Assembly (NCBI GenBank): GCA_963835065.1
Contig: CAWIEK010000037.1
Coordinates: forward strand, 187,946-251,945
Direction: 5' to 3'
DNA from: an uncultured Chthonomonadaceae bacterium
Lineage (GTDB): Bacteria; Armatimonadota; Chthonomonadetes; Chthonomonadales; Chthonomonadaceae
DNA length: 64,000 nt
Part shown: positions 33,548-47,543 of the stretch, one piece after another
Layout: each line of letters opens with the position of its first letter
Numbering within the stretch: the stretch's first letter is position 1
Made by a program: the position numbers and the translations under genes
Notes under the pieces: generated by a model
The model's input: the letters and a program-made list of their open reading frames with translations, nothing else
What the model was told of the DNA's origin: nothing
Database searches by the model: none

Positions 33548-35933
33548 ATGATGCTGACCAAACCCGCCCTGCTGTTCCTCGCGCTTTTCCTTGCTCTGGC
33601 CGGCATTTGCGCCCTGCCCACATCCGCCCGCGCCGACACGTACACTGTCACCAGCGCGGATGATAACGGCGACGATAGCAGCCCCGCGCCCGGTTCGCTG
33701 CGGGAAGCCCTGATGTTTGCGGAAGCGCATCCAGGCGCGGACACCATCGCGTTTGCTATTCCCGGTCCCGGCCTGCATACCATCCGCCTCCTCAACAGCC
33801 TGCGCACCATCGTGGAGGCTGTGACCATTGACGGCCAAACGCAGTCCGGGCAGGCCAACTCCTTTCTCATCGAATTGAACGGCGAGAACGCGGGTACGGG
33901 AGCCAATGGTTTCCAAGATACTGGGATCCAATGTCACCATACGCGGCATGGTCATCAACGGCTTCGATTACGATGGCATCGAGATTCTCGAATATGGAAA
34001 CTGCACACTGGACGGCAACATCATCGGCACGGATGCCGGCATGACCGTCGCCAAACCCAATCACGGCTACGGCATCCACATTGATGCCTCCGACAACAAT
34101 ACCATCACTTCCAACGTGATTGCGGGCAACGGCGGCAACTACCATTCCGGCGGCATACTACTGGAAGCGGGCAGCAAAAACAACCTGGTTGCAGGCAACG
34201 CAATCGGCACAAACCTGCAAATCGCCCTGCCCAACATGCGGTCGGGCATTGGGGTAGAGCAGTCCGGGCAAAACACCTTCAGAAACAACATCATTGCGGG
34301 CAACGCCGACAACGGCATCTACTTTTATGACAGGGCGGATAACAACATCGTGATTCAGAACACGATTGGAGCTGTGCCCTCAGGCGCGGCTTTGACGCCG
34401 ATGGGCAACGGCGGCGACGGCGTAAACATCGTCAGCGCGTCGAACAACCAGATCGGCGGCACGATCCAGATGGATGGACAAACCGTATCGGGCGGGAACA
34501 CCATTGTCAAGAGCGGCAGGCGCGGCGTGAGCATCATCGGCACATATGTTGGAACCGCAAAGGGCAACATCGTGTCGGACAACATCATTGGCGGCGTTTA
34601 CATTGCCCCGCCTCCCGGCAGCAATCCCTACAGCAATCTGAACAACTCGTTGGGCAATACGCTGGATGGCATTTATATGCAAGGCGACGTGAGCGGAACT
34701 ATCATCGGGCAGCATCAGTTCCGCCCGGATTTCAGCGTCGGCGGCAACACCATCAACAACAACGGCAATGACGGATTGCAGGTCGAAGGCGATAACGCGG
34801 TCATTTCCGGCAACAGCATACAGGGCAACGGAGGCCGGGGCATCGAGATTACCGGCGGCGACAGCAATATTATCAGCCATAACACCATTACCAACAATAT
34901 CAAGGGGATTACGGTTCTTGCCGGTGTAGGGCAGACGCTCACGCAAAATTTGATTTATAGCAATGCTAATTTCATCGCCATTGATCTGAACGATGATAAC
35001 GTGTCCGGCAACGATACGGGCGATGGCGACACCGGCCCCAACAACTTCCAAAACTATCCCCGCCTGACCTCCGCGCAAACCGCAAACGGCATGACGGCTA
35101 TTACGGGAACCCTGAACAGCGCGCCCAACGCGCAGTACGTGCTTGAGTTCTTTTCCGCGCCCGCTCTGAATAAGTCCGGGCACAGCGACGCCGCCACGTT
35201 CCTCGGCACAACCAACATCACGACGGACGGTAACGGCAACGCCACTTTCACGCTTGCCGTGCCGGCTGTTTCTCCCGCCTCCGCGTTCGTCAGCGCCACT
35301 GCAACCGGGCCTGACGGCAGCACGTCCGAGTTATCCGAAGCCGTTATGAACAACAGCGCGGTTTCCGTCCTGGCCGCCGTAGATGTCACAGGTCAGGTGC
35401 AGGTCAGGCTTGGAAGTTTCCATTATAACCGCGTCACGCGCCGCTACACGCAGATCGTTACCATTACCAACACAAGCGCCAGCGCCATTGACGGCCCTAT
35501 TTCGCTGCTGCTGCTGAAATTCAGCAACGCGGCTTCTGACCTGCGCAACCGTTCGGGCATGGCGTATATCACCGATCCCACCGGCTATCCCTACATCAAC
35601 TTTCCCGCCGCCAGCCTCGCGCCGGGCGCGAAAACGAGCGTGTTGCTGGATTTCTTCTACCGCCGCAATTATCCCATCACCTATACTCCCCGCATCCTGT
35701 CCGGCCCCAATGACCGCCATGCCGTCCGCATCAAGGGCGTTCGCGCCAATCCCGCGCCGACAGCGGCAACAAGAAACGTGGCCGAGACAAGAAACGTGGC
35801 CGAGACAAGAAACGTGGCGAGGGCAAACAGCGCGGTTAAAACAAGGAGCGCGGTGAAAGCAAAGGCCGTCAGCCGGTCACGCCGCGCTTTTACGCCTGCT
35901 CCGCGTAGAAAACGGGCGCGGAACACAGCATAG
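33548..35933 (+). CDS. Secreted right-handed beta-helix repeat protein (frameshift ~33915)
   Basis: SD ggagg; signal peptide ending ARA; PGSLREAL; repeated GNxIG/GIxI; DGDTGPNNFQNYP, ATATGPDGSTSELS; basic low-complexity tail with (TRNVAE) repeats. Confidence 0.85.
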
Positions 35934-35965
35934 CCGCCACAGGGGGAGGTATTTTCAAAAGGGGG

Positions 35966-35995
35966 TTGACAGCCTGCTTTCCGGTTTGGTATACT
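35966..35995 (+). promoter_or_regulatory. Sigma70 promoter of the arg operon
   Basis: TTGACA-N18-TATACT with an extended TGn. Confidence 0.8.
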
Positions 35996-36027
35996 AACTA
36001 TTATCTTTTTCAGGGAATAATGTTCTT

Positions 36028-36096
36028 ATGTCCGCAGATCACTTGACCAGTTTATGTTCGGCATCCAGCCGTCGCCGTCAGCGTACCGGTATCTAG
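36028..36096 (+). CDS. Putative Arg-rich leader peptide MSADHLTSLCSASSRRRQRTGI
   Basis: CGT CGC CGT CAG CGT at 36070-36084; AGGGA at 36012-36016; lies between the promoter and argC. Confidence 0.75.
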   Translation: MSADHLTSLCSASSRRRQRTGI

Positions 36097-36184
36097 CCCA
36101 CGCTGCGCGGCGCAAGTCGTCTGCTTCGCAATCAACAGTCGTGGGCCGACCCGAACACCGGGGGCTTGCGGCTTTTTTGTTTTT
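36096..36184 (+). terminator. Attenuator: mutually exclusive antiterminator and terminator
   Basis: The terminator stem agtcgtgggcc..cccg/cggg..ggcttgcggct (36137-36173) is followed by a T run. gcccacgctg (36096-36105) can pair with cagtcgtgggc (36136-36146). Confidence 0.72.
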
Positions 36185-36226
36185 ATCGCCACGCCGCCGG
36201 TCACACTGTACCGCGCGGCGTTTTTA

Positions 36227-36441
36227 AATTCACCACCCGCTGCGCTAGAGACACAGAGACACAGAGGGGGAACACAGAGAAACGAAAAGAAGAAAAGAAG
36301 AAGAAGAGAAAAGAAGAGAATAAACCCCTTTGCTTGCTTTGCCTCTTGGCGGTTCCGTTTCCTCTCCTTAATCTCTCCGTCTTTTCTCGCATTGGCTTTT
36401 CCTCTGTGTCTCTGTGTCTCTAGCGCAGCGGGTGGTGAATT
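36227..36441. mobile_element. MITE-like element with perfect 41-bp terminal inverted repeats
   Basis: 36227-36267 is the exact reverse complement of 36401-36441; the interior is purine/pyrimidine-skewed. Confidence 0.8.
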
Positions 36442-36459
36442 CCCGTATTGGAGCGTATT

Positions 36460-37515
36460 ATGTTAGAGGTAGCGGTGGTTGGGGCGTCGGGATATGGGGG
36501 AGGGGAGTTGCTGCGCCTGCTGGCGGGGCATCCTGATGCGCGGGTGACGCAGGCGATCTCGGAAACGTATGCGGGCAAGGCTCTGTCCGCCGCCTTTCCC
36601 GGCCTGACCGGAACCCGCGCATCGGAACTGCGCTTTGAAAGTTATGGCGACGGCAGCAGCGTGGCGCAATGCGACGTAGTGTTTCTGGCGCAGGAAAACA
36701 CCAAAGCCATGCAGACCGCGCCGCATTTAATCGAAGCCGGGTGCAAAATCGTGGATTTGTCCGCCGATTTTCGGTTCCGCGATGTAGATACGTATGCGCA
36801 ATGGTACGGTATGGCTCACGCCTGCCCACGCTTGAATCAGGAAGCCGTATACGGACTGCCGGAACTCAACAAAACAGCCATTCGCCAAGCCCGCATCGTG
36901 GGCAATCCGGGCTGCCATGCCACCGCAGGCATACTCGCCCTCGCGCCGCTGGTACAAAACGGCTTAATTGCGCCGGACAGCATCATCATTGATTCCAAAA
37001 CCGGCGTATCGGGCGCGGGGCGGGCCAAGTTCAGCCTTGATTACCATTTTCCCGAAATTAACGAAAGCGTGAGCGCGTACAAGACCGCCGGTACGCACCG
37101 CCACACGCCGGAAATCGAAATGTCGCTGCAAGCGCTTACCCAACCACAAGCGCCACTCGCGGTTACGTTCACGCCGCATCTTATTCCCATCACGCGGGGC
37201 ATTCTGGCAACGTGCTACGCAACGCTGAAGCAAGCGGCAACCGTACAGGAACTAAACACGCTTTACGCGCAGTTTTACGCTGACGCGCCCTTTGTCGCCG
37301 TCGTGGAAGACCATCTTCCGGCCACCAAGCACACCGTTGGCACGAACTATTGCCATCTCGCCGTAAGCGTAGACCCGCGCAACAACCGCGTCACCGTAAT
37401 CTCCTGTCTCGACAACCTGATTAAAGGCGCGGCAGGACAGGCCATTCAGAACATGAATTTGATGTGTGGCTTACAAGAACATGCGGGCATTAACGCAGGA
37501 GGTATCTGGCCGTGA
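36460..37515 (+). CDS. argC: N-acetyl-gamma-glutamyl-phosphate reductase
   Basis: GASGYGG, DLSADFR, VYGLPE, NPGC, GVSGAG, DNLIKGAAGQA; ATG at 36460 after ggag. Confidence 0.97.
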   Translation: MLEVAVVGASGYGGGELLRLLAGHPDARVTQAISETYAGKALSAAFPGLTGTRASELRFESYGDGSSVAQCDVVFLAQENTKAMQTAPHLIEAGCKIVDLSADFRFRDVDTYAQWYGMAHACPRLNQEAVYGLPELNKTAIRQARIVGNPGCHATAGILALAPLVQNGLIAPDSIIIDSKTGVSGAGRAKFSLDYHFPEINESVSAYKTAGTHRHTPEIEMSLQALTQPQAPLAVTFTPHLIPITRGILATCYATLKQAATVQELNTLYAQFYADAPFVAVVEDHLPATKHTVGTNYCHLAVSVDPRNNRVTVISCLDNLIKGAAGQAIQNMNLMCGLQEHAGINAGGIWP

Positions 37516-38282
37516 GTATCGTCACAAGCGATAAAAAATCAACCGTAGGGGCGCAATTTATTGCGCCCGACTCGCGCTCTGCGCCCTCTGCCGCGCTTGC
37601 GCCCGATTCGCGCCCCGCGTCTGCCACACCCCTTACCTCTTATGTGTCCGACGCACATTCCGCAATCGAAACTCTAATGCCGAGAAGCGGTAATCGCCCT
37701 GCCTTCATTCGCGCCTATCAGGTGACGGACTACCCACAGGTGTTGGCGTTATGGCAGGAAGCAAATCTGCGGCCTTTTCTGGAGCAGGAACTCGAACGGT
37801 TGCTCGGTTCGGGCGGCGGCGCGTTGGTGGCGGTTGTGCCGCAAGCGAATGAGGGCGGCAAGGCCGGTCTGAACGGAACAGAAGCAGCGGTGACAGCGGG
37901 GCATGAAGCGCCTCTTACCGATACGGTTGTCGGCATTGTCCTGTGGTCGCATAACGGCAGCGTGGGTATTTTGTGGCGGCTGGCGGTTGCGGAACAGCAG
38001 CGCGGGCGCGGTATTGCGACGAAACTGCTGGATCGGGCGGAGCAGGACATTCGCGCGGCGGGCTTCAGTGGCGTGACCCTGTTGACCCGCGTGACAAACA
38101 CCGTCGCCAAAAGCATGTATGCCAGACGCGGCTACAAATGGAACGACCATCTGGAATTTTGGGGCAAGAAACTGCCTGATCTAATGGAAACACTTGATTT
38201 AATAGAAACGCCGGAGCGGATGGAAACGAACGCTCTGCCAACGGACATGCCTGCAACTTGTGAGGAGCAAACATCGTGCTGA
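37512..38282 (+). CDS. GNAT family N-acetyltransferase
   Basis: LAVAEQQRGRGIATKLL, N..AKSMYARRGY. Confidence 0.88.
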   Translation: MSIVTSDKKSTVGAQFIAPDSRSAPSAALAPDSRPASATPLTSYVSDAHSAIETLMPRSGNRPAFIRAYQVTDYPQVLALWQEANLRPFLEQELERLLGSGGGALVAVVPQANEGGKAGLNGTEAAVTAGHEAPLTDTVVGIVLWSHNGSVGILWRLAVAEQQRGRGIATKLLDRAEQDIRAAGFSGVTLLTRVTNTVAKSMYARRGYKWNDHLEFWGKKLPDLMETLDLIETPERMETNALPTDMPATCEEQTSC

Positions 38283-39496
38283 CGCAGTGGAAGGACGTGG
38301 AAGCGGGCGTTACGTACCCGGAAGGCTTTGTCGCCGCCGGGGTGCGCTGCGGCCTCAAGACACAGGGCGCGGACTTGGCCTTGCTTGTCAGCGACAGCGC
38401 GGCTGCCGTCGCAGGCGTGTTCACCACCAATCGCGTACAGGCCGCCTGCGTCCAGTATTCTCGGCGCGTGGCGCGGAACGGCACGGCGCGGGCGGTGCTT
38501 ATCAACGCGGGCAACGCCAACGCCTGCAACGGCGAGCAGGGCGACCACGACAACCGCACAATGGCCGAATGGGTGTCCAGGCATTTGAACATTCCTCCCG
38601 ACTCGGTTCTCACGGCGTCTACGGGAATCATCGGACACCTGATGCCGATGGAAAAATTACAGGCGGGGATTGCGGATGCGGTTGCTAATCTGGACCGGGA
38701 CGAAACAACCGATGAAACCGTTGCCCGCGCCATTATGACAACCGACACGGTTCCCAAGTTTCGCGCCTGCGATGTGGACAGTGACCAGTGGGTCGCGCCC
38801 ATTCGGTTTGGCGGGATGTGCAAGGGCGCGGGCATGATCGCGCCCAATATGGCAACCATGCTCGCCTTCGTCACCACCGATGCCCGCCTGCCCGCCCCGC
38901 TTTTACAGGAAGCCCTGAAACGCGCCATTGCCGCGTCCTTCAACAGCGTCACGATTGACGGCGATACCAGTACCAATGATATGTGCCTGCTGCTGGCGTC
39001 CGGCATGGGCGAGGGCGTGATTTCCGTGCCCGGACCGGCCTTTGAAGATTTTGTCGAAGCCTTAACGCGGCTTTGCATCGAACTCGCCAAAGCCATTGCC
39101 CGCGACGGCGAGGGCGCAACCAAATTGGCCGAAATCATCGTGCGCGGCGCGTTGACCGAAACGGGAGCGCATACCATTGCCAAAACCATTGCCGAGTCGC
39201 CGCTCGTCAAAACCGCCCTCTTCGGCAACGATCCCAATTGGGGCCGCCTGCTGATGGCGGCGGGACGCGCGGGCGTTCCCTTCGACCAAAACAAAATTGA
39301 CGTGTCCATCGGCCCGCATCTCGTGTGTTCGCAGGGCGGCAGCGTAGACTTTGACCGGGATGCCGCCCACGATTATTTGACCGGCAAGGATGTGCAGATC
39401 ATCCTTGACTTGAATCAGGGTGACGAACTCGCCACCGTCTGGACTTGCGATTACAGTTACGATTACATCAAGATCAATGCCGAGTATCATACATAA
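38276..39496 (+). CDS. argJ: Glutamate N-acetyltransferase (ornithine acetyltransferase)
   Basis: NAGNANAC, STGIIG, AIMTTDT, KGAGMIAPNMATML, DGDTSTND, DGEGATK. Confidence 0.98.
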   Translation: MLTQWKDVEAGVTYPEGFVAAGVRCGLKTQGADLALLVSDSAAAVAGVFTTNRVQAACVQYSRRVARNGTARAVLINAGNANACNGEQGDHDNRTMAEWVSRHLNIPPDSVLTASTGIIGHLMPMEKLQAGIADAVANLDRDETTDETVARAIMTTDTVPKFRACDVDSDQWVAPIRFGGMCKGAGMIAPNMATMLAFVTTDARLPAPLLQEALKRAIAASFNSVTIDGDTSTNDMCLLLASGMGEGVISVPGPAFEDFVEALTRLCIELAKAIARDGEGATKLAEIIVRGALTETGAHTIAKTIAESPLVKTALFGNDPNWGRLLMAAGRAGVPFDQNKIDVSIGPHLVCSQGGSVDFDRDAAHDYLTGKDVQIILDLNQGDELATVWTCDYSYDYIKINAEYHT

Positions 39497-39530
39497 GCAG
39501 GGATAAGGGGTAAGTGGTAAGGGATAAGTC

Positions 39531-40364
39531 ATGTTAAGGATGCAGGATGAAGGTATGAAGTTACGCTCGTTGGGCTATCGTACCGACTTGATCTTTGCGC
39601 GTTTCGCGGGCAGCATCACGGACAGGGGCGAGTATCTGGTAATCCGCACCCCTTCTAATCCGACCTTTTTCTGGGGCAACTTCCTGCTGTTCGCCAACCC
39701 ACCGCAGACCGGCGATTTTGACCGATGGAAAGCCTTGTTCGCGCGGGAGATCGGAACGCCTGATCAGGTGAGGCATCTCGCATTTGGATGGGACACTGTT
39801 GAAGGCGAAACGGGTGAAGTCGCGCCTTTTCTGGCAGCCGGCTTTGATTTGGATACAAGCATCGTGCTGACCGCCCGGCAGGTACATATTCCGCCGAAAT
39901 TCAATCCCGGTGTTGAAATACGCGCCTTTGAATCGGATGAAGATTGGGAGCAGGCGACGCAAAATCAGATTGCGCACCGTGAGCCGCAATTCAGCCTTGA
40001 AGGGTATACGAAGTTTCGGCGCGCGAAAATGGCCTCTTATCGCGCAATGGCGGCGCAAGGATTAGGGCATTGGTTCGGAGCGTATGTAGAGGGGCAACTT
40101 GCGGGCGATTTGGGGCTTTTCGTGGATCAAACTGAGGACAAGGTAGGCCGTTTTCAATTTGTCACGACTTACGAAACTTTTCGACGGCAGGGTGTCTGCT
40201 CCACCCTCGTTTACAAAGTCGCTCAATTCGGGTTTACAAACATGGGCGTGGAAACGCTGGTCATGGTAGCGGACGAAGACTATTTTGCAGCCCGCATTTA
40301 CGAATCCGTCGGATTTCAGCCAACCGAGCGGCAAGCAAGCCTGCAATGGTTTGAGAAGGCATAA
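39531..40364 (+). CDS. GNAT family N-acetyltransferase
   Basis: RTPSNPTFFWGNFL, FRRQGVCSTL, AARIYESVGF. Confidence 0.9.
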   Translation: MLRMQDEGMKLRSLGYRTDLIFARFAGSITDRGEYLVIRTPSNPTFFWGNFLLFANPPQTGDFDRWKALFAREIGTPDQVRHLAFGWDTVEGETGEVAPFLAAGFDLDTSIVLTARQVHIPPKFNPGVEIRAFESDEDWEQATQNQIAHREPQFSLEGYTKFRRAKMASYRAMAAQGLGHWFGAYVEGQLAGDLGLFVDQTEDKVGRFQFVTTYETFRRQGVCSTLVYKVAQFGFTNMGVETLVMVADEDYFAARIYESVGFQPTERQASLQWFEKA

Positions 40365-40485
40365 TGAACCCGAAACAACCGGTCATTAAACTGCGCGTAA
40401 TGAGCCGTCTGAGCAATCACCGCCGCTGGCAGCCGCGCAAGAATTCTGAACTTGTTGTAAAATAATGATATAGGCGCTCACATCT

Positions 40486-41352
40486 ATGCTGAAAATTGAC
40501 CAGAATACCCATGCGTCCGTGCTGATTGAAGCCCTGCCTTACCTGCGGGAATTCTACGGCAAAACCATTGTCGTCAAGTACGGCGGCAACGCCATGATTG
40601 ACGAAACGCTGAAAGCGCAGGTGATGCAGGATATTGCGCTCCTGCATTACGTCGGGGTGCGCCCGGTATTGGTTCACGGCGGCGGGCCGGAAATCAGCGC
40701 CATGATGAAGCAGATGGGACACGAGCCGGCCTTTATCGGCGGCCTGCGCGTCACGGACGCCGAAACAATGGATATTGTTGAAATGGTGCTGGCGGGCAAG
40801 ACTAATAAAGGCATTGTGTCCCTGCTCAACACGCAGGGCGCGAAAGCCGTCGGCTTGAGCGGCAAGGACGCCAACTTGATTCAGGCGTATAAAATGGAGT
40901 CGCCCCAAGGGGATTTGGGCTACGTGGGCGAAGTGGCGAAAGTGAACGCCGAACTGCTCATTCTATTGAGCGAACAGGGCTACATTCCTGTGATCTCTTC
41001 CGTCGCCATTGGCCCGGATGGAGAAAGTTACAACGTCAACGCCGACCATGTGGCCGGGCATATTGCGGCAGCCCTGCGCGCGGCCAAACTGGTTATTCTG
41101 ACCGATGTGGAAGGCTTGTACGCCAATTACAGCGACAAGACATCGCTGATTTCGGAAATGGACGCGACGGACGCCGAAGAGATGATCGCGTCCGGCGCGG
41201 CGGAGCGGGGCATGATTCCCAAATTGGAAGCCTGCATTGTCGCTGTAGAAGGCGGCGTGCCCCGCGCTCATCTCATAGACGGACGCATCCCCCATGCCCT
41301 GCTCATCGAAATTTTCACGGATGCGGGTATCGGCACGATGGTTCACGAATAA
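40486..41352 (+). CDS. argB: Acetylglutamate kinase
   Basis: VVKYGGNAM, VHGGGP, GLRVTD, NVNAD, GMIPK. Confidence 0.98.
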   Translation: MLKIDQNTHASVLIEALPYLREFYGKTIVVKYGGNAMIDETLKAQVMQDIALLHYVGVRPVLVHGGGPEISAMMKQMGHEPAFIGGLRVTDAETMDIVEMVLAGKTNKGIVSLLNTQGAKAVGLSGKDANLIQAYKMESPQGDLGYVGEVAKVNAELLILLSEQGYIPVISSVAIGPDGESYNVNADHVAGHIAAALRAAKLVILTDVEGLYANYSDKTSLISEMDATDAEEMIASGAAERGMIPKLEACIVAVEGGVPRAHLIDGRIPHALLIEIFTDAGIGTMVHE

Positions 41353-41373
41353 AATGGAGAACTTGACGAACTG

Positions 41374-42114
41374 ATGTTACAGAGAAATACTTTCCGGGGT
41401 TCCTTGACGAACACCGTTATACGCCCTTTTGTTGCGGCCTGTGCTGTGTTGGCGTTGCTTGTGTCCGGCGTTTCCAGCCTGAGTCGCGCCGACTCGCGGC
41501 ATGATGTGGACGAGTACAGCGTGTCGTTTGTGGACTCGCCAACACGCGACAAACATGATAACGATTACACGAACGCGCTTGTCAACACCCTGCATTGGGG
41601 GCATTTTCCGATTCGCATTGGATTTACCAACGCTATAAGCAGCGACCGGCAGAAATTGGACGAAATCGTCGAACGGGGTTTCGATCAATGGGTACGCGCC
41701 ACACAGGGCGAAGTGAAGTACGAAGTGGTTTCCAACCCGTCCCGCGCCGACCTGACGATCACGTATGAGGTTGTGTCTTCGCGTCCGCTTACGGGCGGCA
41801 AATTGGGCACGACCGGCTTCAATTACGACCCGACCAAACGGCAGTTGCGCCATGCCGACATGCACCTCAGCGTGTGGGAAGGCATGACCCGCCGCGACCT
41901 GACGCGGTTTGAAAACACCGCTGCGCATGAATTCGGCCACGCGCTGGGCATCAACGGCCACAGCCCCGATCCCGACGACCTGATGTACTATACGTCGTCG
42001 CACTCGGATGGCGTAACTGCCCGCGACCTGAATACCCTGCGGCAGGCATACGGCGGTTTCGCGCACAAAGCAACGGCGGAAACCAACAAGAAAAACGCCA
42101 AAACGCGCTCGTAA
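41374..42114 (+). CDS. Secreted matrixin-like zinc metalloprotease
   Basis: Signal peptide; HEFGHALGINGHS followed by Met-turn LMY. Confidence 0.9.
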   Translation: MLQRNTFRGSLTNTVIRPFVAACAVLALLVSGVSSLSRADSRHDVDEYSVSFVDSPTRDKHDNDYTNALVNTLHWGHFPIRIGFTNAISSDRQKLDEIVERGFDQWVRATQGEVKYEVVSNPSRADLTITYEVVSSRPLTGGKLGTTGFNYDPTKRQLRHADMHLSVWEGMTRRDLTRFENTAAHEFGHALGINGHSPDPDDLMYYTSSHSDGVTARDLNTLRQAYGGFAHKATAETNKKNAKTRS

Positions 42115-42115
42115 C

Positions 42116-42245
42116 TGTCTGAACCATGATTTTCAGGATTAACGGATTAACCGGATGTACTGCGCACTCATTATTGATTGAGCCTGCAATCTCACGCTCT
42201 GAAATCCTGTTAATCTATTAATTCTGAAAATCATGGTTCCAGACA
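42116..42245. repeat. Inverted-repeat element with nonamer (ggattaac) units
   Basis: tgtctgaaccatgattttcaggattaa ... ttaattctgaaaatcatggttccagaca. Confidence 0.8.
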
Positions 42246-42258
42246 ATCGGAGAACCCC

Positions 42259-43521
42259 ATGATACTTGAACAAGAACTCGACCATTCCCCTCATCTTTCG
42301 CCACCATCGTACATCCATGATGTCGCTTGTGACGCTGCGTATATCATGCAGACGGACAGCGAGTATGTGCTGGGCACGTATGCGCGTCAGCCGATTGTGT
42401 TTGTGCGCGGCGAAGGCGCGCGGTTGTGGGACAGCGAGGGGCGCGAGTATCTGGACTTTCTGGCGGGCATCGCTGTCGTGCAGGTGGGGCATTGCCACCC
42501 GCGCATTGCCGACGCGATTGCCAATCAGGCGCATACGCTGATGCAGGTCAGCAACCTGTACCACAACGCGCTGCAGGCTCCGCTTGCCAAACGCCTGTGC
42601 CAGTTGGCGGGCATGGAAAAAGCGTTTTTCTGCAATTCGGGCGCGGAAGCCAATGAGGCCGCGCTTAAAATCGCCCGCAAGTGGGGCAAGCAGAAGCGCG
42701 GCAGCGAGTGTTACGAGATCATTACGTTTCAGGGTTCGTTTCACGGGCGCACGATGGGGACCGTGACGGCAACCGCGCAGCCAAAATATCAAATGCCGTT
42801 CGCGCCACTCGTGCCGGGTTTCCACTACGCACCCCTGAATGATCTTCCCGCGCTCGAAGAACTTGTCAGCGAGAAAACCTGCGCCGTGATGATTGAGCCG
42901 ATACAGGGCGAATCGGGCGTCAACGTCGCGGCCCCGGAATTTCTCAACGGCCTCCGCGCCCTGTGCGACAAGGCCGAAGTATTGCTGATTTTAGATGAAG
43001 TGCAATGCGGCATGGGACGAACGGGGCGCTTTTTAGCAAGCCAGCTTGCGGGCATACAGGGCGACATCGTGACGCTTGCCAAAGGGATCGCGGACGGTTT
43101 TCCGATGGGCGCGTGTCTGACGCGGGGCGAAGCCGCTCATACCCTTGTTCCCGGCGATCATGGCAGCACGTTCGCGGGCCAACCCCTCGCCTGCGCCGCC
43201 GCCCTCGCCACACTGGATATAATCGAAGACGAAAATTTAATGCAGCGCGCCGACCAGACCGGGCAGTATTTCCGAAGCGCATTGAACCAACTCCGCGCCG
43301 ATTTCCCCGAACGCATTACGGAAGTGCGCGGGCGCGGGCTTATGGTGGGCGTCCAATTTGCGCAGCCGGAAGCCAAAACCCTGTACCAAAACTTGCTCAA
43401 AGCAGGCATCATCGCCAACGCGACAGGGGACTACGTTCTGCGCTTCGTTCCCCCGCTCATCGTCACCAATTCCGATTGCGACCTCGTTGTGGACACGTTG
43501 CGCGGACTGCTGCAAGCATAG
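42259..43521 (+). CDS. argD: Acetylornithine aminotransferase
   Basis: YLDFLAGIAV, NSGAEANEAA, FHGRT, EPIQGESG, DEVQCG, LAKG; arg operon context. Start uncertain. Confidence 0.95.
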   Translation: MILEQELDHSPHLSPPSYIHDVACDAAYIMQTDSEYVLGTYARQPIVFVRGEGARLWDSEGREYLDFLAGIAVVQVGHCHPRIADAIANQAHTLMQVSNLYHNALQAPLAKRLCQLAGMEKAFFCNSGAEANEAALKIARKWGKQKRGSECYEIITFQGSFHGRTMGTVTATAQPKYQMPFAPLVPGFHYAPLNDLPALEELVSEKTCAVMIEPIQGESGVNVAAPEFLNGLRALCDKAEVLLILDEVQCGMGRTGRFLASQLAGIQGDIVTLAKGIADGFPMGACLTRGEAAHTLVPGDHGSTFAGQPLACAAALATLDIIEDENLMQRADQTGQYFRSALNQLRADFPERITEVRGRGLMVGVQFAQPEAKTLYQNLLKAGIIANATGDYVLRFVPPLIVTNSDCDLVVDTLRGLLQA

Positions 43522-43554
43522 TCGGCTTGTGAAGGAAATAAAGGGAGATAAAAG

Positions 43555-44310
43555 GTGACAGGAACGGCTCAAAGCACAACAGTGAAACACCCATACTCTG
43601 ATGCTTTGCCGCCTGAACCACTCGTGTTTACGCCTGCTCCGGCGGAACATCCAACCCGGCGCTTGTGGACCCACGCTGACTATCACAAAGCAGGTGAACT
43701 CGGCTTGTTCGGCCCGGAAGAACAGTTGGAATTGATTAACGGCGAGGTTTGGCACAAAGCAAGGCCGCGAAGCGCCGCACATGCCTTTGCCACAATCCTG
43801 ACAGGCGAAACCCTGCGCAGTAACATCGGACCAGATTTTCACGTTCAGGAAGAGAAGCCGGTAGTGCTGGATGATTTGACGGAACCCGAACCCAACATAA
43901 TGGTTGTACGCGGCACACGGCGGCAGATGTTCAGCCTTGCAACACCTGCAAATGCCGTGTTGGTTGTGGAAGTGTCGGAAACAACGCTCCGGTTCGATCA
44001 GACCGTTAAAGCGGAGGCTTACGCCCGCTCAGGAATTGCCGATTACTGGATATTGAACCTGCGCTTCAGGCAACTGGAAGTGCGCCGGGAGCCGGGACTG
44101 CTTGGCGACGGGCAATGGGGCTACCGTTCCCTGCAAATTATACTTTCTGGCAGTCAAATCTCCCCGCTTGCCGCGCCGGATGTTGTTATCAATGTTGCCG
44201 ACCTGCTGCCTGCTATCCAAGCCGTCAGCGCGGCGGATGCTTCCAACCGCAGTATGCCACTCCCTGACGATCAGGCCGCAGTTTCGTCAGATGCTCCTCA
44301 GAATGAGTAG
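43555..44310 (+). CDS. Uma2 family endonuclease
   Basis: LELINGEV, EPEPNI (N where D is usual), VVEVSETT, YARSGIADYWI. Confidence 0.9.
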   Translation: MTGTAQSTTVKHPYSDALPPEPLVFTPAPAEHPTRRLWTHADYHKAGELGLFGPEEQLELINGEVWHKARPRSAAHAFATILTGETLRSNIGPDFHVQEEKPVVLDDLTEPEPNIMVVRGTRRQMFSLATPANAVLVVEVSETTLRFDQTVKAEAYARSGIADYWILNLRFRQLEVRREPGLLGDGQWGYRSLQIILSGSQISPLAAPDVVINVADLLPAIQAVSAADASNRSMPLPDDQAAVSSDAPQNE

Positions 44311-44322
44311 ACTCAACCCAAC

Positions 44323-45303
44323 ATGGACGCGACTCAACTACGACAAATCATTGAAGACAACGCGCAGCAATGGCGCAAAAAGTCTGTTATCAGCCTGTTT
44401 GACTTTTCCACCGAACAGATACGCGCCGTTTTGGATGTGGCGGCGGGGCTGAAGCAGTACGATCTGGCGCGCGAGCGCAGCGTATACTGGCAATATCCGC
44501 GCACCCTTGCCCTGCTGTTTGAAAAACCCTCCCTGCGCACGAGGGTCAGTTTCGAGGCGGGCATGGCGCATTTGCACGGGCAGGCTATCTACCTTGCGCC
44601 CGGTGACGTGGGATTGGGCGCGCGGGAAGCGGTTGCGGACGTGGCGGGGGCGCTTTCCCGGTGGGTGGACATTATCGCCGCCCGCGTGTTCAAGCATGAA
44701 ACCGTTGAAGACCTGCAAAAACACGGCACGATTCCTGTTATCAACGCGCTCAGTGACCGCGAACATCCTGTTCAGGCGTTTGCCGACCTGCTCACGCTTC
44801 AGGAGCAAAAGGGTCCGCTCGGCAACAACTTGAAACTGGCATACGTCGGGGACGGCAACAACGTTTTACACGCGCTCTTGCTTGCCTGCGCCAAAATGGG
44901 GGTACACTTAAGCGCGGCCTGCCCGCTCGGTTACGAGCCGATGGACAGTTACGTGCAGGAAGCGACCCGCATCGCGCAGCAAACGGGCGCAAGCGTGGAA
45001 ATCATTGCCGATCCCGTTCAGGCTGTACAAAACGCCGATGCCGTGTATACCGACGTATGGGCCAGCATGGGACAGGAAGACGAAAAAACGGCGCGAACGC
45101 AAATCTTCGCGCCCTATCAGATCAATTCCAGTTTGCTTTCCCGCGCCAAACCGGACGTATCTGTGTTGCATTGCCTGCCCGCCCATCGCGGCGAAGAGGT
45201 TTCCGCCGACGTCATGGACGCGCACAATACGGTTATCATGGATCAGGCGGAAAATCGCCTGCACACCCAAAAGGCGCTGCTCATGCTGATTTTGGGCCTG
45301 TGA
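44323..45303 (+). CDS. argF: Ornithine carbamoyltransferase
   Basis: FEKPSLRTRVSF, HPVQAFAD, GDGNNV, DVWASMG, HCLP, QAENR. Confidence 0.96.
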   Translation: MDATQLRQIIEDNAQQWRKKSVISLFDFSTEQIRAVLDVAAGLKQYDLARERSVYWQYPRTLALLFEKPSLRTRVSFEAGMAHLHGQAIYLAPGDVGLGAREAVADVAGALSRWVDIIAARVFKHETVEDLQKHGTIPVINALSDREHPVQAFADLLTLQEQKGPLGNNLKLAYVGDGNNVLHALLLACAKMGVHLSAACPLGYEPMDSYVQEATRIAQQTGASVEIIADPVQAVQNADAVYTDVWASMGQEDEKTARTQIFAPYQINSSLLSRAKPDVSVLHCLPAHRGEEVSADVMDAHNTVIMDQAENRLHTQKALLMLILGL

Positions 45304-45316
45304 CCGCGTATTTCCT

Positions 45317-45388
45317 TCTGCAAACAATTCGCAGACTGCAATTAGTTCGCAGTCTGCAACTCGATTGCAATCTGCCATTCGCTTGCAA
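45317..45388. repeat. Four tandem 18-bp quasi-palindromic repeats
   Basis: tctgcaaacaattcgcag / actgcaattagttcgcag / tctgcaactcgattgcaa / tctgccattcgcttgcaa. Confidence 0.75.
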
Positions 45389-45399
45389 AAGGAGACACC

Positions 45400-46092
45400 A
45401 TGAATCAAATCAGAACTTTGACACTGCGGGTCGCCGCGCTCGGAATGCTGACCTTCGGGTTGCTGACGCGCAGCCAATTCGCGCAGGCCGCGCCGCCCGC
45501 CGCCCCGGAACTAAAAGCCGTTCAAGCCGTGACCGTAGAAGCGAGCGGTCCAAAATCCGGCGACAATGGCGACAAGTTCTTTAATATCGAAGGCGCAAAA
45601 AACGGCAAGTATGCCTGCTTCGGCCTGTTGCGCTTTGATGGCGCGACCCTGAAAAAAGAACTGGATGGCAAATACGGCGCGGGCAAATACAAAATCACCA
45701 ATGTCACGCTGCAATTGACGCAAAGCCCCGCAAAATTTTCCAAAGATGGCCCGGTCAACATCTTCTTCCGCGCCGATACGACGCCCAATCTCAATGTGCA
45801 GTCGCTGAAATACCCCTATGCGCCCGGCGACAAAACCATCGGCGGCAGTAAAATCGCCGTTGGCGTGCCCTCCAAAACTTCCGCCAAAGCGGAAGCCGAA
45901 GAAAGCGTTGTCGAGGCGTACAACCTGACCAACGACGCGAGCGGCAGCGGCCTGAAAGACGCCCTGCAAGCGGGCAAAATCGTGACCTTAGTTTTAACGG
46001 CGGGGGATGAGGCGGTTGCCGAAACCTACGCCGGCTTGAAAGGCGTACGCAAACGCAAAGCGCCGACGTTGGTGGTAAGTCTCAATAAGTAG
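45400..46092 (+). CDS. Secreted hypothetical protein
   Basis: SD aaggag; signal peptide ending AQA; beta-rich body. Confidence 0.8.
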   Translation: MNQIRTLTLRVAALGMLTFGLLTRSQFAQAAPPAAPELKAVQAVTVEASGPKSGDNGDKFFNIEGAKNGKYACFGLLRFDGATLKKELDGKYGAGKYKITNVTLQLTQSPAKFSKDGPVNIFFRADTTPNLNVQSLKYPYAPGDKTIGGSKIAVGVPSKTSAKAEAEESVVEAYNLTNDASGSGLKDALQAGKIVTLVLTAGDEAVAETYAGLKGVRKRKAPTLVVSLNK

Positions 46093-46201
46093 TCAGTAGC
46101 CAGTAGTCAGTAGAAATGCCCTGTTCATCGTGGCTTTTCCTACTGAAAAAAGAGTAATAGCGCGTGTTCTACTGACTACTGACTACTGGCTACTGACTAC
46201 T
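46088..46201. repeat. Inverted heptamer repeats (cagtagt/ctactga)
   Basis: agtagtcagtagccagtagtcagtag ... ctactgactactgactactggctactgactact. Confidence 0.85.
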
Positions 46202-46217
46202 TTTTAAGGAGTGACTC

Positions 46218-47543
46218 ATGCGCAAAATTGTACTGGTGTATTCGGGCGGGCTGGATACGTCCGTGTGTATTCCGCTGATGCGGGAAGAGTACGGCTTCGA
46301 CCATGTGATTACGGTTACGGTAGATGTGGGGCAGGCGCGGGAAGACATTGCGCAGGCCGAGGAGCGCGCCCGCCGCTTTGGAACCGAGCATTATACGGTA
46401 GACGCCCGCGCCCTGTTCGTGGAAAATTTCTGCTGGCCTGCGGTGCGCGCGAACGGCGAGTATCAGGGCTACCCGGTTTCCACGTCTATCGCCCGCCCGC
46501 TGATAGCCCTGAAAGCGGTGGAAAAGGCGCAGGAATTGGGCGCAAGCGCGTTCGGGCATGGCTGTACGGGCAAGGGCAACGACCAATTTCGTATCGAATA
46601 CATCATGCGTACCCTGATGCCCGACGCGGAAATTATTGCGCCCATGCGCGAAGGGCGCAAAATGCCAGATGGCAGCCGTTCGCCCTGGACCCGCAGCGAA
46701 GAGATCGAATACGCGAACGAACACGGTCTGGACATTTCGCAAACCACGAGCAAAATCTGGAGCATTGACGAGAACTTGTGGGGGCGCAGCGTGGAAGGCG
46801 GACGCTTGGAAGAGCCGAATTACGCGCCCCCCGAAGAAATCTACCAGTGGACGCGCGGCCTTGCCGACTGCCCCGACACGCCCCGCGAACTGACCATCGG
46901 CTTTGAAAACGGCGTACCCGTATCTCTCGACGGCAAAAAATACGCGCCACTCGATCTGGTGGTGGAACTGAACAAAATCGCGGGCGAAAACGGCGTCGGG
47001 CGCGTGGACATCATGGAAGACCGGATGCTCGGCCTGAAAGTGCGCGAAAACTACGAGTGCCCGGCGGCAGTGGTGATTCTGGCCGCGCACCGCGCCCTGG
47101 AAGCGCTCGTTTGTACGCAGGCGGAATTGAAGTTCAAGAAACTGGTGGACGGCGAATGGGGTGAAATGGCCTACAAAGGCTTATGGTTCGACCCGCTCAA
47201 GGAAGATTTGGAAGCGTTCATCAACAAGGTGCAGGAGCGCGTTACGGGAACCGTCAACATGCGGCTGGCAAAAGGCAGCGCGATTATCGTGGGACGGGCA
47301 AGCGAAATGGCCCTGTACAACGAAGACCTGGCAAGTTTCGACAGCAAAACGTTCAATCAGGCCGAGTCGTTGGGCATCGTGAAAACGCACGGCATGCAAT
47401 CTAAACTCTACTTCAAACTGAAATACCCGGAAGGCGCGTTGCTGGCAGGCAACATGGAACAAAAACTGCTTGGCAGTCAGCCGGTCGCGCATGAGCAGGC
47501 CGACGCGGGTGACGCGGGCGCAACCGGCGATTACAGCGGCTAA
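46218..47543 (+). CDS. argG: Argininosuccinate synthase
   Basis: YSGGLDTS, HGCTGKGNDQFR, SIDENLWGRSVE, GVGRVDIMEDR. Confidence 0.98.
   Translation: MRKIVLVYSGGLDTSVCIPLMREEYGFDHVITVTVDVGQAREDIAQAEERARRFGTEHYTVDARALFVENFCWPAVRANGEYQGYPVSTSIARPLIALKAVEKAQELGASAFGHGCTGKGNDQFRIEYIMRTLMPDAEIIAPMREGRKMPDGSRSPWTRSEEIEYANEHGLDISQTTSKIWSIDENLWGRSVEGGRLEEPNYAPPEEIYQWTRGLADCPDTPRELTIGFENGVPVSLDGKKYAPLDLVVELNKIAGENGVGRVDIMEDRMLGLKVRENYECPAAVVILAAHRALEALVCTQAELKFKKLVDGEWGEMAYKGLWFDPLKEDLEAFINKVQERVTGTVNMRLAKGSAIIVGRASEMALYNEDLASFDSKTFNQAESLGIVKTHGMQSKLYFKLKYPEGALLAGNMEQKLLGSQPVAHEQADAGDAGATGDYSG

Follow-up and report, generated by a model that had tools for sequence, protein, structure and literature searches.

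How might arginine biosynthesis be controlled in a bacterium in whose genome the arginine repressor is not found? Operons for arginine biosynthesis are usually controlled by ArgR/AhrC. The window analysed here, a stretch of 64,000 nucleotides from an uncultured Chthonomonadaceae bacterium, carries such a gene cluster, and an earlier note had suggested that the cluster is governed by a ribosome-dependent attenuator and that the genome be searched for argR. That search returned no ArgR: neither of the two ArgR domains (PF01316, PF02863) was found in the bacterium's own assembly, which is 92% complete.

T-box riboswitches likewise sense the charging of tRNA. The T-box model (RF00230) gave no match at the argC leader, and a search of the locus with Rfam 15 gave nothing above the gathering score; the 13 sub-threshold matches include no bacterial leader or riboswitch family. 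The T-box-like elements of this genome precede other genes instead. Three matches lie just under the gathering score (L104, L105 and L106, on C69, C43 and C11): a pair of near-identical elements upstream of valS-like ORFs, of which the one at L105 appears frameshifted, and one element with inserted repeats before a thrC-like ORF, where the gene names are our reading of the translations.

The leader in front of argC

The features of the locus are as follows (positions of the window; T1 and T2 are the two terminators, and segments 1 to 6 are the pairing strands).

35966..35995, + strand: sigma70-type promoter with extended -10, TTGACA-18-TG-TATACT, from a consensus scan; a similar promoter occurs in most homologous leaders
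36012..36016, + strand: weak Shine-Dalgarno candidate AGGGA, 11 nt 5' of the ATG, read from the sequence
36028..36096, + strand: leader uORF of 22 codons, ending RRRQR-TGI-stop; in-frame start in 44 of 45 homologues
36070..36084, + strand: segment 1, the Arg control codons CGT CGC CGT CAG CGT; 90% paired as the 5' strand of the predicted protector
36096..36105, + strand: segment 2, the antiterminator strand at and after the uORF stop, partner of segment 3 by alignment pairing and folding
36137..36184, + strand: predicted terminator T1, with segment 3 at 36137-36147, segment 4 at 36164-36173 and a U tract at 36173-36184
36191..36225, + strand: predicted hairpin/terminator T2, with segment 5 at 36193-36201 and segment 6 at 36210-36221, then T5
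36227..36441, no strand: REP-like palindrome of 215 nt, a dispersed repeat inserted between T2 and argC
36460..47543, + strand: the putatively regulated cluster, argC (36460-37515), GNAT, argJ, ORF, argB, ORF, argD, ORF, argF, ORF, argG

The sigma70 promoter that the earlier note had read here is borne out, with TTGACA at 35966-35971, an 18-nt spacer, the TG element and TATACT at 35990-35995, which together make 11 of 12 consensus matches. No other such site lies within 35000-37000, where 0.7 would be expected. A purine-rich motif at a position comparable to that of the Shine-Dalgarno candidate is common among the leaders of relatives. An out-of-frame ORF of 8 codons (36020-36046, + strand) overlaps the start of the uORF, 3 nt after this candidate. 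The 22-codon uORF was also found as described, its Arg codons confined to 36070-36084 as CGT CGC CGT (CAG) CGT, close to its end.

Folding of the RNA placed both hairpins where they had been proposed, each with a T tract on its 3' side. The folding energy is -21.5 kcal/mol (z -2.8) for T1 (36137-36173), which precedes T6GT5, and -18.8 kcal/mol (z -3.4) for T2 (36191-36221), which precedes T5. The T1 fold contains an internal bulge, and that of T2 has a loop of 3-5 nt and bulges; a simple terminator scan of the window called neither of the two. The predicted antiterminator (36096-36146) reaches -21.8 kcal/mol with z -2.1, and the region of the predicted protector hairpin, in which segment 1 pairs with segment 2 (36073-36084 with 36100-36112), reaches -22.6 kcal/mol over 36067-36115 with a z score within -2.1 to -3.4. 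For the pairing of the 3' arm of T1 with 36188-36201, called 4:5 below, the energy is -18.5 kcal/mol and z is only -1.75.

Among 657 promoter-like sites in the 8-Mb genome, a single one is followed by an Arg-run mini-ORF, a hairpin and a U tract, and this is the argC leader, with thresholds that were chosen when the window was already known. A second copy of the leader was sought in the same genome and none was found, the remaining matches having E values of 0.07 or worse.

Downstream, argC, argJ, argB, argD, argF and argG score above the NCBIfam cut-offs, and four interspersed ORFs have no NCBIfam match; we infer that the cluster from argC to argG is co-transcribed. The palindrome at 36227-36441 lies outside the conserved leader. 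Its terminal stem of 46 bp is conserved, whereas its purine/pyrimidine-rich interior varies. The genome holds 85 matches to its arms, and the paired copies, 32 in number, measure about 50-390 nt. One arm of it is also found 3' of the argC leader in two relatives (G021 and G060), and the same spot is filled by other palindromes in further relatives.

Distribution of the leader in the Armatimonadota

A search of 185,579 species genomes with a pattern of the leader core gave 16 matches, 14 of them in Chthonomonadaceae or Chthonomonadales and two attributable to chance. In JGI metagenomes, nine of ten pattern matches were real leaders. Three pattern matches (L036, L039 and L048) have no argC nearby and were taken as chance. 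A search anchored on ArgC, which carries no bias toward the motif, found the uORF and the leader at 16 of 30 loci of relatives.

A covariance model was built from 26 leaders (alignment A3), of which 12 came from patterns that required Arg codons and a stop. It matched in 39 of 68 Chthonomonadales genomes, and 38 of these are real once three weak matches away from argC are dropped (G031 and the second matches of G024 and G016, which have no argC nearby and were taken as chance). In 35 of the 38 genomes argC lies 3' of the leader, and in the remaining three the leader runs into a contig end. Nineteen real leaders, including two of a distant family, stand outside the model alignment, and argC is downstream of 18 of the nineteen. 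The earlier note had proposed that the regions upstream of argC be aligned among related genomes; in this comparison the uORF, the Arg run, the position of the stop, the antiterminator and the terminators all proved conserved, with compensatory changes.

The model matched in 9 of 151 Armatimonadota genomes, and two of these belong to a distant family, both with the match immediately before argC. Of 30 argC loci taken from the phylum's other families, only the one in G091 showed a promoter and an Arg-codon uORF within 420 nt; at the remaining loci argC may not be the first gene. The leader of G091 (L128:2688-2916, - strand) is a diverged homologue, missed by the covariance model, with the same order of segments. 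The sequence of its antiterminator differs yet stays complementary, and its T2 is of the type seen in family f3, with a U tract.

ArgC scores over the cut-off in 61 of the 68 genomes of the order, which indicates that many lineages lack the leader, and 30 of the 68 genomes have no real leader match. ArgR was found in one of 41 relatives (G010, a 70% complete MAG), in none of 33 near-complete relatives and in 2 of 151 genomes of the phylum. The single ArgR of G010 (L031, G010:C471) adjoins a second, divergent argC (37% identity) on a short contig, and contamination and transfer are alternative explanations for it. Since 30 of 68 genomes show no real leader and ArgR was found in none of the 33 near-complete relatives, loss of ArgR does not require an Arg attenuator.

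Several loci depart from the common layout. G017 (L082 / L003) carries an inserted open frame, about 200 codons long, that separates argC from the attenuator. G011 (L005) has the uORF and T2, segments 3 and 4 (T1) are absent and its folds show no switch; the gap may stem from a deletion between repeated motifs or from faulty assembly. G008 and G067 have lost T2 and retain T1 with a U-rich tail. In G022 (L022) a promoter and a T2-like hairpin are present and the uORF is absent, and in G023 (L013) a long palindromic repeat occupies the place of the leader. One argC match (L028, G002:C14:482713-483771) is interrupted by internal stops, which probably reflect frameshifts or errors of sequencing, behind an intact leader.

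Probable translation of the uORF and the two predicted terminators

We propose that transcription of the arginine biosynthesis operon is attenuated in this leader in a ribosome-dependent way, according to the supply of charged tRNA-Arg, a reading that the features of the sequence make very probable. When Arg-tRNA is plentiful, a ribosome at the stop codon would cover segment 2, T1 (the pairing of segments 3 and 4, 3:4) would form and transcription would terminate at about 36180, with T2 (5:6) catching the read-through. When Arg-tRNA is scarce, the ribosome would stall on the CGY codons and cover segment 1, and segments 2 and 3 would pair (2:3) before segment 4 exits RNA polymerase. T1 would then be kinetically blocked, as it must swap three Watson-Crick pairs for three G.U pairs, and the freed segment 4 would pair with segment 5 and so block T2. 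With no ribosome on the leader, the protector (1:2) would hide segment 2, and the default would be termination.

The helices of this scheme were examined in two alignments, A3, a MAFFT alignment of 26 rows that was not fitted to a structure, and A4, a model alignment of 44 rows fitted to 2:3 and 5:6. In A3 the 2:3 helix is 96.7% paired, with two-sided changes at four of seven pairs, which upholds the claim that the segment after the stop is complementary to the 5' arm of T1. The terminated fold (1:2, 3:4 and 5:6) is 91.4% paired in A3, with compensation at 9 of 29 pairs, a result reached by no shuffle. In A4, 2:3 is 96.1% paired (five of seven pairs compensated) and 5:6 is 92.7% paired (five of nine). 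A change from A-U to G-C in 2:3 is seen in three or more clades, each with its own support, of an ArgC tree, which was built quickly, has an open backbone and leaves out eight of the 45 leaders that have no usable ArgC. The three central pairs of T1 are mostly G.U (in 19, 26 and 25 of 44 leaders), and 2:3 has Watson-Crick pairs exactly where T1 has these, which plausibly raises a barrier to strand invasion.

The folding was then considered with a ribosome on the RNA, with footprints of 12 nt, as given in the accessible part of PMC4833913, and 16 nt. The geometry agrees with the scheme: segment 2 is left free by a ribosome on the control codons and is covered by one at the stop. At the moment when segment 3 emerges, with the A site on the Arg codons, 32-40 of 43 leaders form 2:3 (P>0.5), against 13 of 43 with no ribosome and none of 43 with the ribosome at the stop, the last partly a result of the mask itself. 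In co-transcriptional snapshots of the window's leader, in which RNA behind the ribosome was held unpaired, the stalled ribosome gives 2:3 with P=1.0 until the RNA reaches 36169, and T1 rises to about 0.75 once it is complete. Emergence of segment 5 brings 2:3 back to about 1.0, and the complete T2 has a P of about 0.8. With the ribosome at the stop, T1 and T2 both have P of 1.0.

At equilibrium the picture changes. With T1 fully exposed and the ribosome stalled, T1 is still dominant in 28-32 of 39 leaders, a set from which 6 of 45 were dropped because the segment finder failed and in which at least one is misassigned. Likewise T2 persists in 20-22 of 26 leaders of family f1 and in 3-4 of 9 of family f3. 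In the window, the state with 4:5 lies 6.5 kcal/mol above that with 5:6, and escape from the read-through folds has to cross computed barriers of about 12-13 kcal/mol. Because the terminators persist at equilibrium in most stalled simulations, the switch would have to be kinetic. In the footprint-constrained folding that the earlier note had recommended, the antiterminator appears in the emergence snapshots, and T1 and T2 dominate most stalled folds at equilibrium.

The note had also claimed that the freed 3' arm of T1 could break T2. This claim has held up in the conservation of the helix: 4:5 is 81.7% paired among the leaders, which was equalled by 2 of 500 shuffles. It did not hold in covariation, since three pairs of 4:5 are changed on both sides, no more than in shuffles (328/500), nor at equilibrium, where T2 wins. 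There is a different reading, in which only T1 of an Arg-codon attenuator is regulated, 4:5 is a by-product of repeated GC motifs, and T2 is independent and acts as a leaky damping terminator or as a 5'-protecting stem of the processed mRNA. The covariation and the equilibrium folds fit this reading, as do G008 and G067, which do without T2, and G022, which keeps its T2-like hairpin although the uORF is absent. The tails of the terminators point the other way. In f3 leaders (n=9) the T1 tails have 3.7 U of 9 and the T2 tails 6.2, and in f1 leaders (n=26) the values are 6.8 and 5.6, a comparison that leaves out four leaders with no alignable T1 or T2. As the U tract of f3 leaders is mostly on T2 and not on T1, the signal of the ribosome must reach T2. 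In addition, the base of the T2 stem is near-invariant and its top covaries, as would be expected with a second partner, and the pairing of 4:5, at 82%, is seldom matched by shuffling. We regard regulation of T1 alone as possible but doubtful.

Two clades have repaired the usual mismatch in 4:5 differently, the f3 clade with a U-A pair and a second clade with a G-C pair that entails the loss of a T1 pair, and this, together with the tail pattern of T1 and T2 in f3, favors a relay in which the freed 3' arm of T1 blocks T2. The difference in tail strength between T2 and T1 does not follow the energy of 4:5 (rho 0.06). From these models we give the relay a chance slightly better than even. The wider proposal is that a six-segment relay, possibly ancestral in the Armatimonadota, stands in for ArgR there as a CGU-tuned arg attenuator, and that it is T1 in some lineages and T2 in others that has come to do the terminating; we place this at even chances.

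The uORF appears to be translated, to judge from several features of the 45 leaders. An in-frame start is present in all but one of them, and that one has no upstream sequence. Among 42 leaders with a called promoter, 32 have an ATG 3' of the promoter and in frame with the Arg run, and the other two frames have 0 and 2, though the leaders of relatives are not statistically independent because of kinship. The stop codon is TAG in 26, TAA in 13 and TGA in 6. Before the run, Arg makes up 14 of 431 residues, compared with 7.4% in the long ORFs of the genome. The Arg codons of the uORFs (n=233) include 128 CGT and 60 CGC, whereas CGT accounts for 13.8% of the Arg codons in long ORFs. Variation between C and T at the third position of the Arg codons fits G.U pairing in the protector and so is no proof of coding alone. 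The first core Arg codon lies 27-31 nt from segment 2 in most leaders. The genome's own tRNA-Arg anticodons are CCG, CCT, TCT, GCG (2) and TCG (2), and none with ACG was found in the 92% complete assembly, from which tRNAs can be missing unassembled. Without an ACG tRNA-Arg, CGU would be read by wobble, and the genome may decode CGN codons without inosine.

Could the nascent peptide itself, RRR-E/Q-R, cause a ligand- or antibiotic-dependent arrest in place of a stall on uncharged tRNA? SpeFL, the fungal arginine attenuator peptide and the macrolide +X+ leaders are arrests to compare it with. In A4 the codon after the third Arg is Glu in 38 and Gln in 3 of 44 leaders, and the conserved A of this codon, its middle position, is unpaired in the predicted protector, a point in favor of an arrest. 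An Arg-Leu-Arg motif marks antibiotic-stalling leaders, according to the available text of PMC8632094. The N-terminal part of the peptide varies in both length and sequence, and only the Arg run and the E/Q are kept, which is evidence against an arrest peptide. In leaders of that class (SpeFL, TnaC, fungal AAP) the nascent peptide is conserved upstream of the stall site; no such conservation was found among the 45 leaders. Stalling would moreover switch the operon on, which is the wrong sign for an arrest by free arginine, and the regulated gene is always argC. An arrest peptide is therefore improbable.

Still less probable is an untranslated RNA switch, whether a riboswitch, a T-box-like element or a protein-bound RNA, in which the Arg codons would be a mere pairing strand. 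Segment 1 does pair with segment 2, and in the consensus fold it can also pair with segment 6, as such a switch would allow. The count of in-frame ATG codons, the fixed stop at which TAG and TAA are exchanged and the depletion of Arg upstream speak against it, as do the lack of a match to a bacterial Rfam family, the variable linkers and the absence of an extended aptamer-like conserved core. Finally, short ORFs and GC hairpins are common, but a chance arrangement in a single genome is refuted, with next to no probability left to it, by a leader that is kept before argC in 38 genomes across the order, covaries and is unique among the 657 promoter-like sites.

Known attenuators and what the leader means

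The classical attenuators (trpL, hisL, thrL, leuL, pheL and ilvL) share with the argC leader a uORF of cognate codons, a protector, an antiterminator, an intrinsic terminator and read-through that is favored by stalling. In the accessible text of PMC11857589 the antiterminator of classical attenuators forms ahead of the terminator, and ilvBNC of C. glutamicum is given as a three-hairpin attenuator; uORFC-8-2 of cysS in Rhodobacterales is a classical-type leader attenuator in the available part of PMC8632094. The earlier note had assigned the leader to this geometry, and the assignment stands for what can be tested in sequence, namely an Arg-codon uORF, a position between promoter and operon, a predicted terminator with a U tract, a covarying antiterminator and a geometry in which the position of the ribosome decides whether segment 2 is free; in most leaders equilibrium folding does not show the antiterminator outlasting the terminator, and the co-transcriptional snapshots favor it. 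The leader differs from the classical ones in that arginine would be sensed, the target is argC-J-B-D-F-G, the host belongs to the Armatimonadota and no Rfam leader family matches. It also adds another conserved terminator, to which a 4:5 relay is predicted, and has six segments rather than four.

Other uORFs respond to arginine in different ways. In the speF leader of Salmonella (orf34/speFL), pausing at consecutive uORF Arg codons likewise refolds the leader according to arginine supply, but the target is ornithine decarboxylase and the means are Rho, sequestration of the ribosome-binding site and decay by RNase G, with neither arginine biosynthesis nor intrinsic terminators in the part of PMC6386406 that was accessible. 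The uORF of rbfL in S. aureus also senses arginine limitation through Arg codons; these are the rare AGA/AGG, however, the downstream ribosome-binding site is occluded, stalling turns the target off and the target is a biofilm regulator, according to the accessible text of PMC13009471. In E. coli the uORF argL affects an arginine biosynthesis gene, argF; it overlaps the 5' end of argF, and the main text of the report (10.1101/511675) does not mention arginine and describes no terminator in its accessible part. The tandem attenuators of Salmonella mgtCBR also place a number of alternative stem-loops of a single leader under the control of uORFs, of which there are two in the account available in PMC3641672, whereas here one uORF would control two serial terminators.

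A full-text search that reached few subscription papers turned up no classical attenuator of an operon for arginine biosynthesis, so that an earlier description in print may exist. The accessible text of PMC8632094 and its supplement list cys and phe uORFs and no arg leader, and the word arginine is absent from the accessible main text of PMC2965389, PMC5314783, PMC4833913 and PMC11857589. Relative to the papers that were accessible, what is new is that an operon for arginine biosynthesis would sense arginine itself, that the host belongs to this phylum and that a relay of two terminators is predicted.

Arginine biosynthesis is usually described as controlled by a repressor and is missing from the lists of classical attenuators in the accessible papers. 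If the relay is real, one Arg-starved ribosome would flip two intrinsic terminators in series, 2:3 freeing segment 4 and 4:5 blocking T2, and this predicted relay would extend the four-segment design of the textbooks. The leader could also serve strain engineering as a sensor of arginine starvation. For the Chthonomonadales themselves, a conserved and covarying attenuator that very probably reads Arg codons shows how an order in which ArgR was hardly ever found can regulate a costly pathway.
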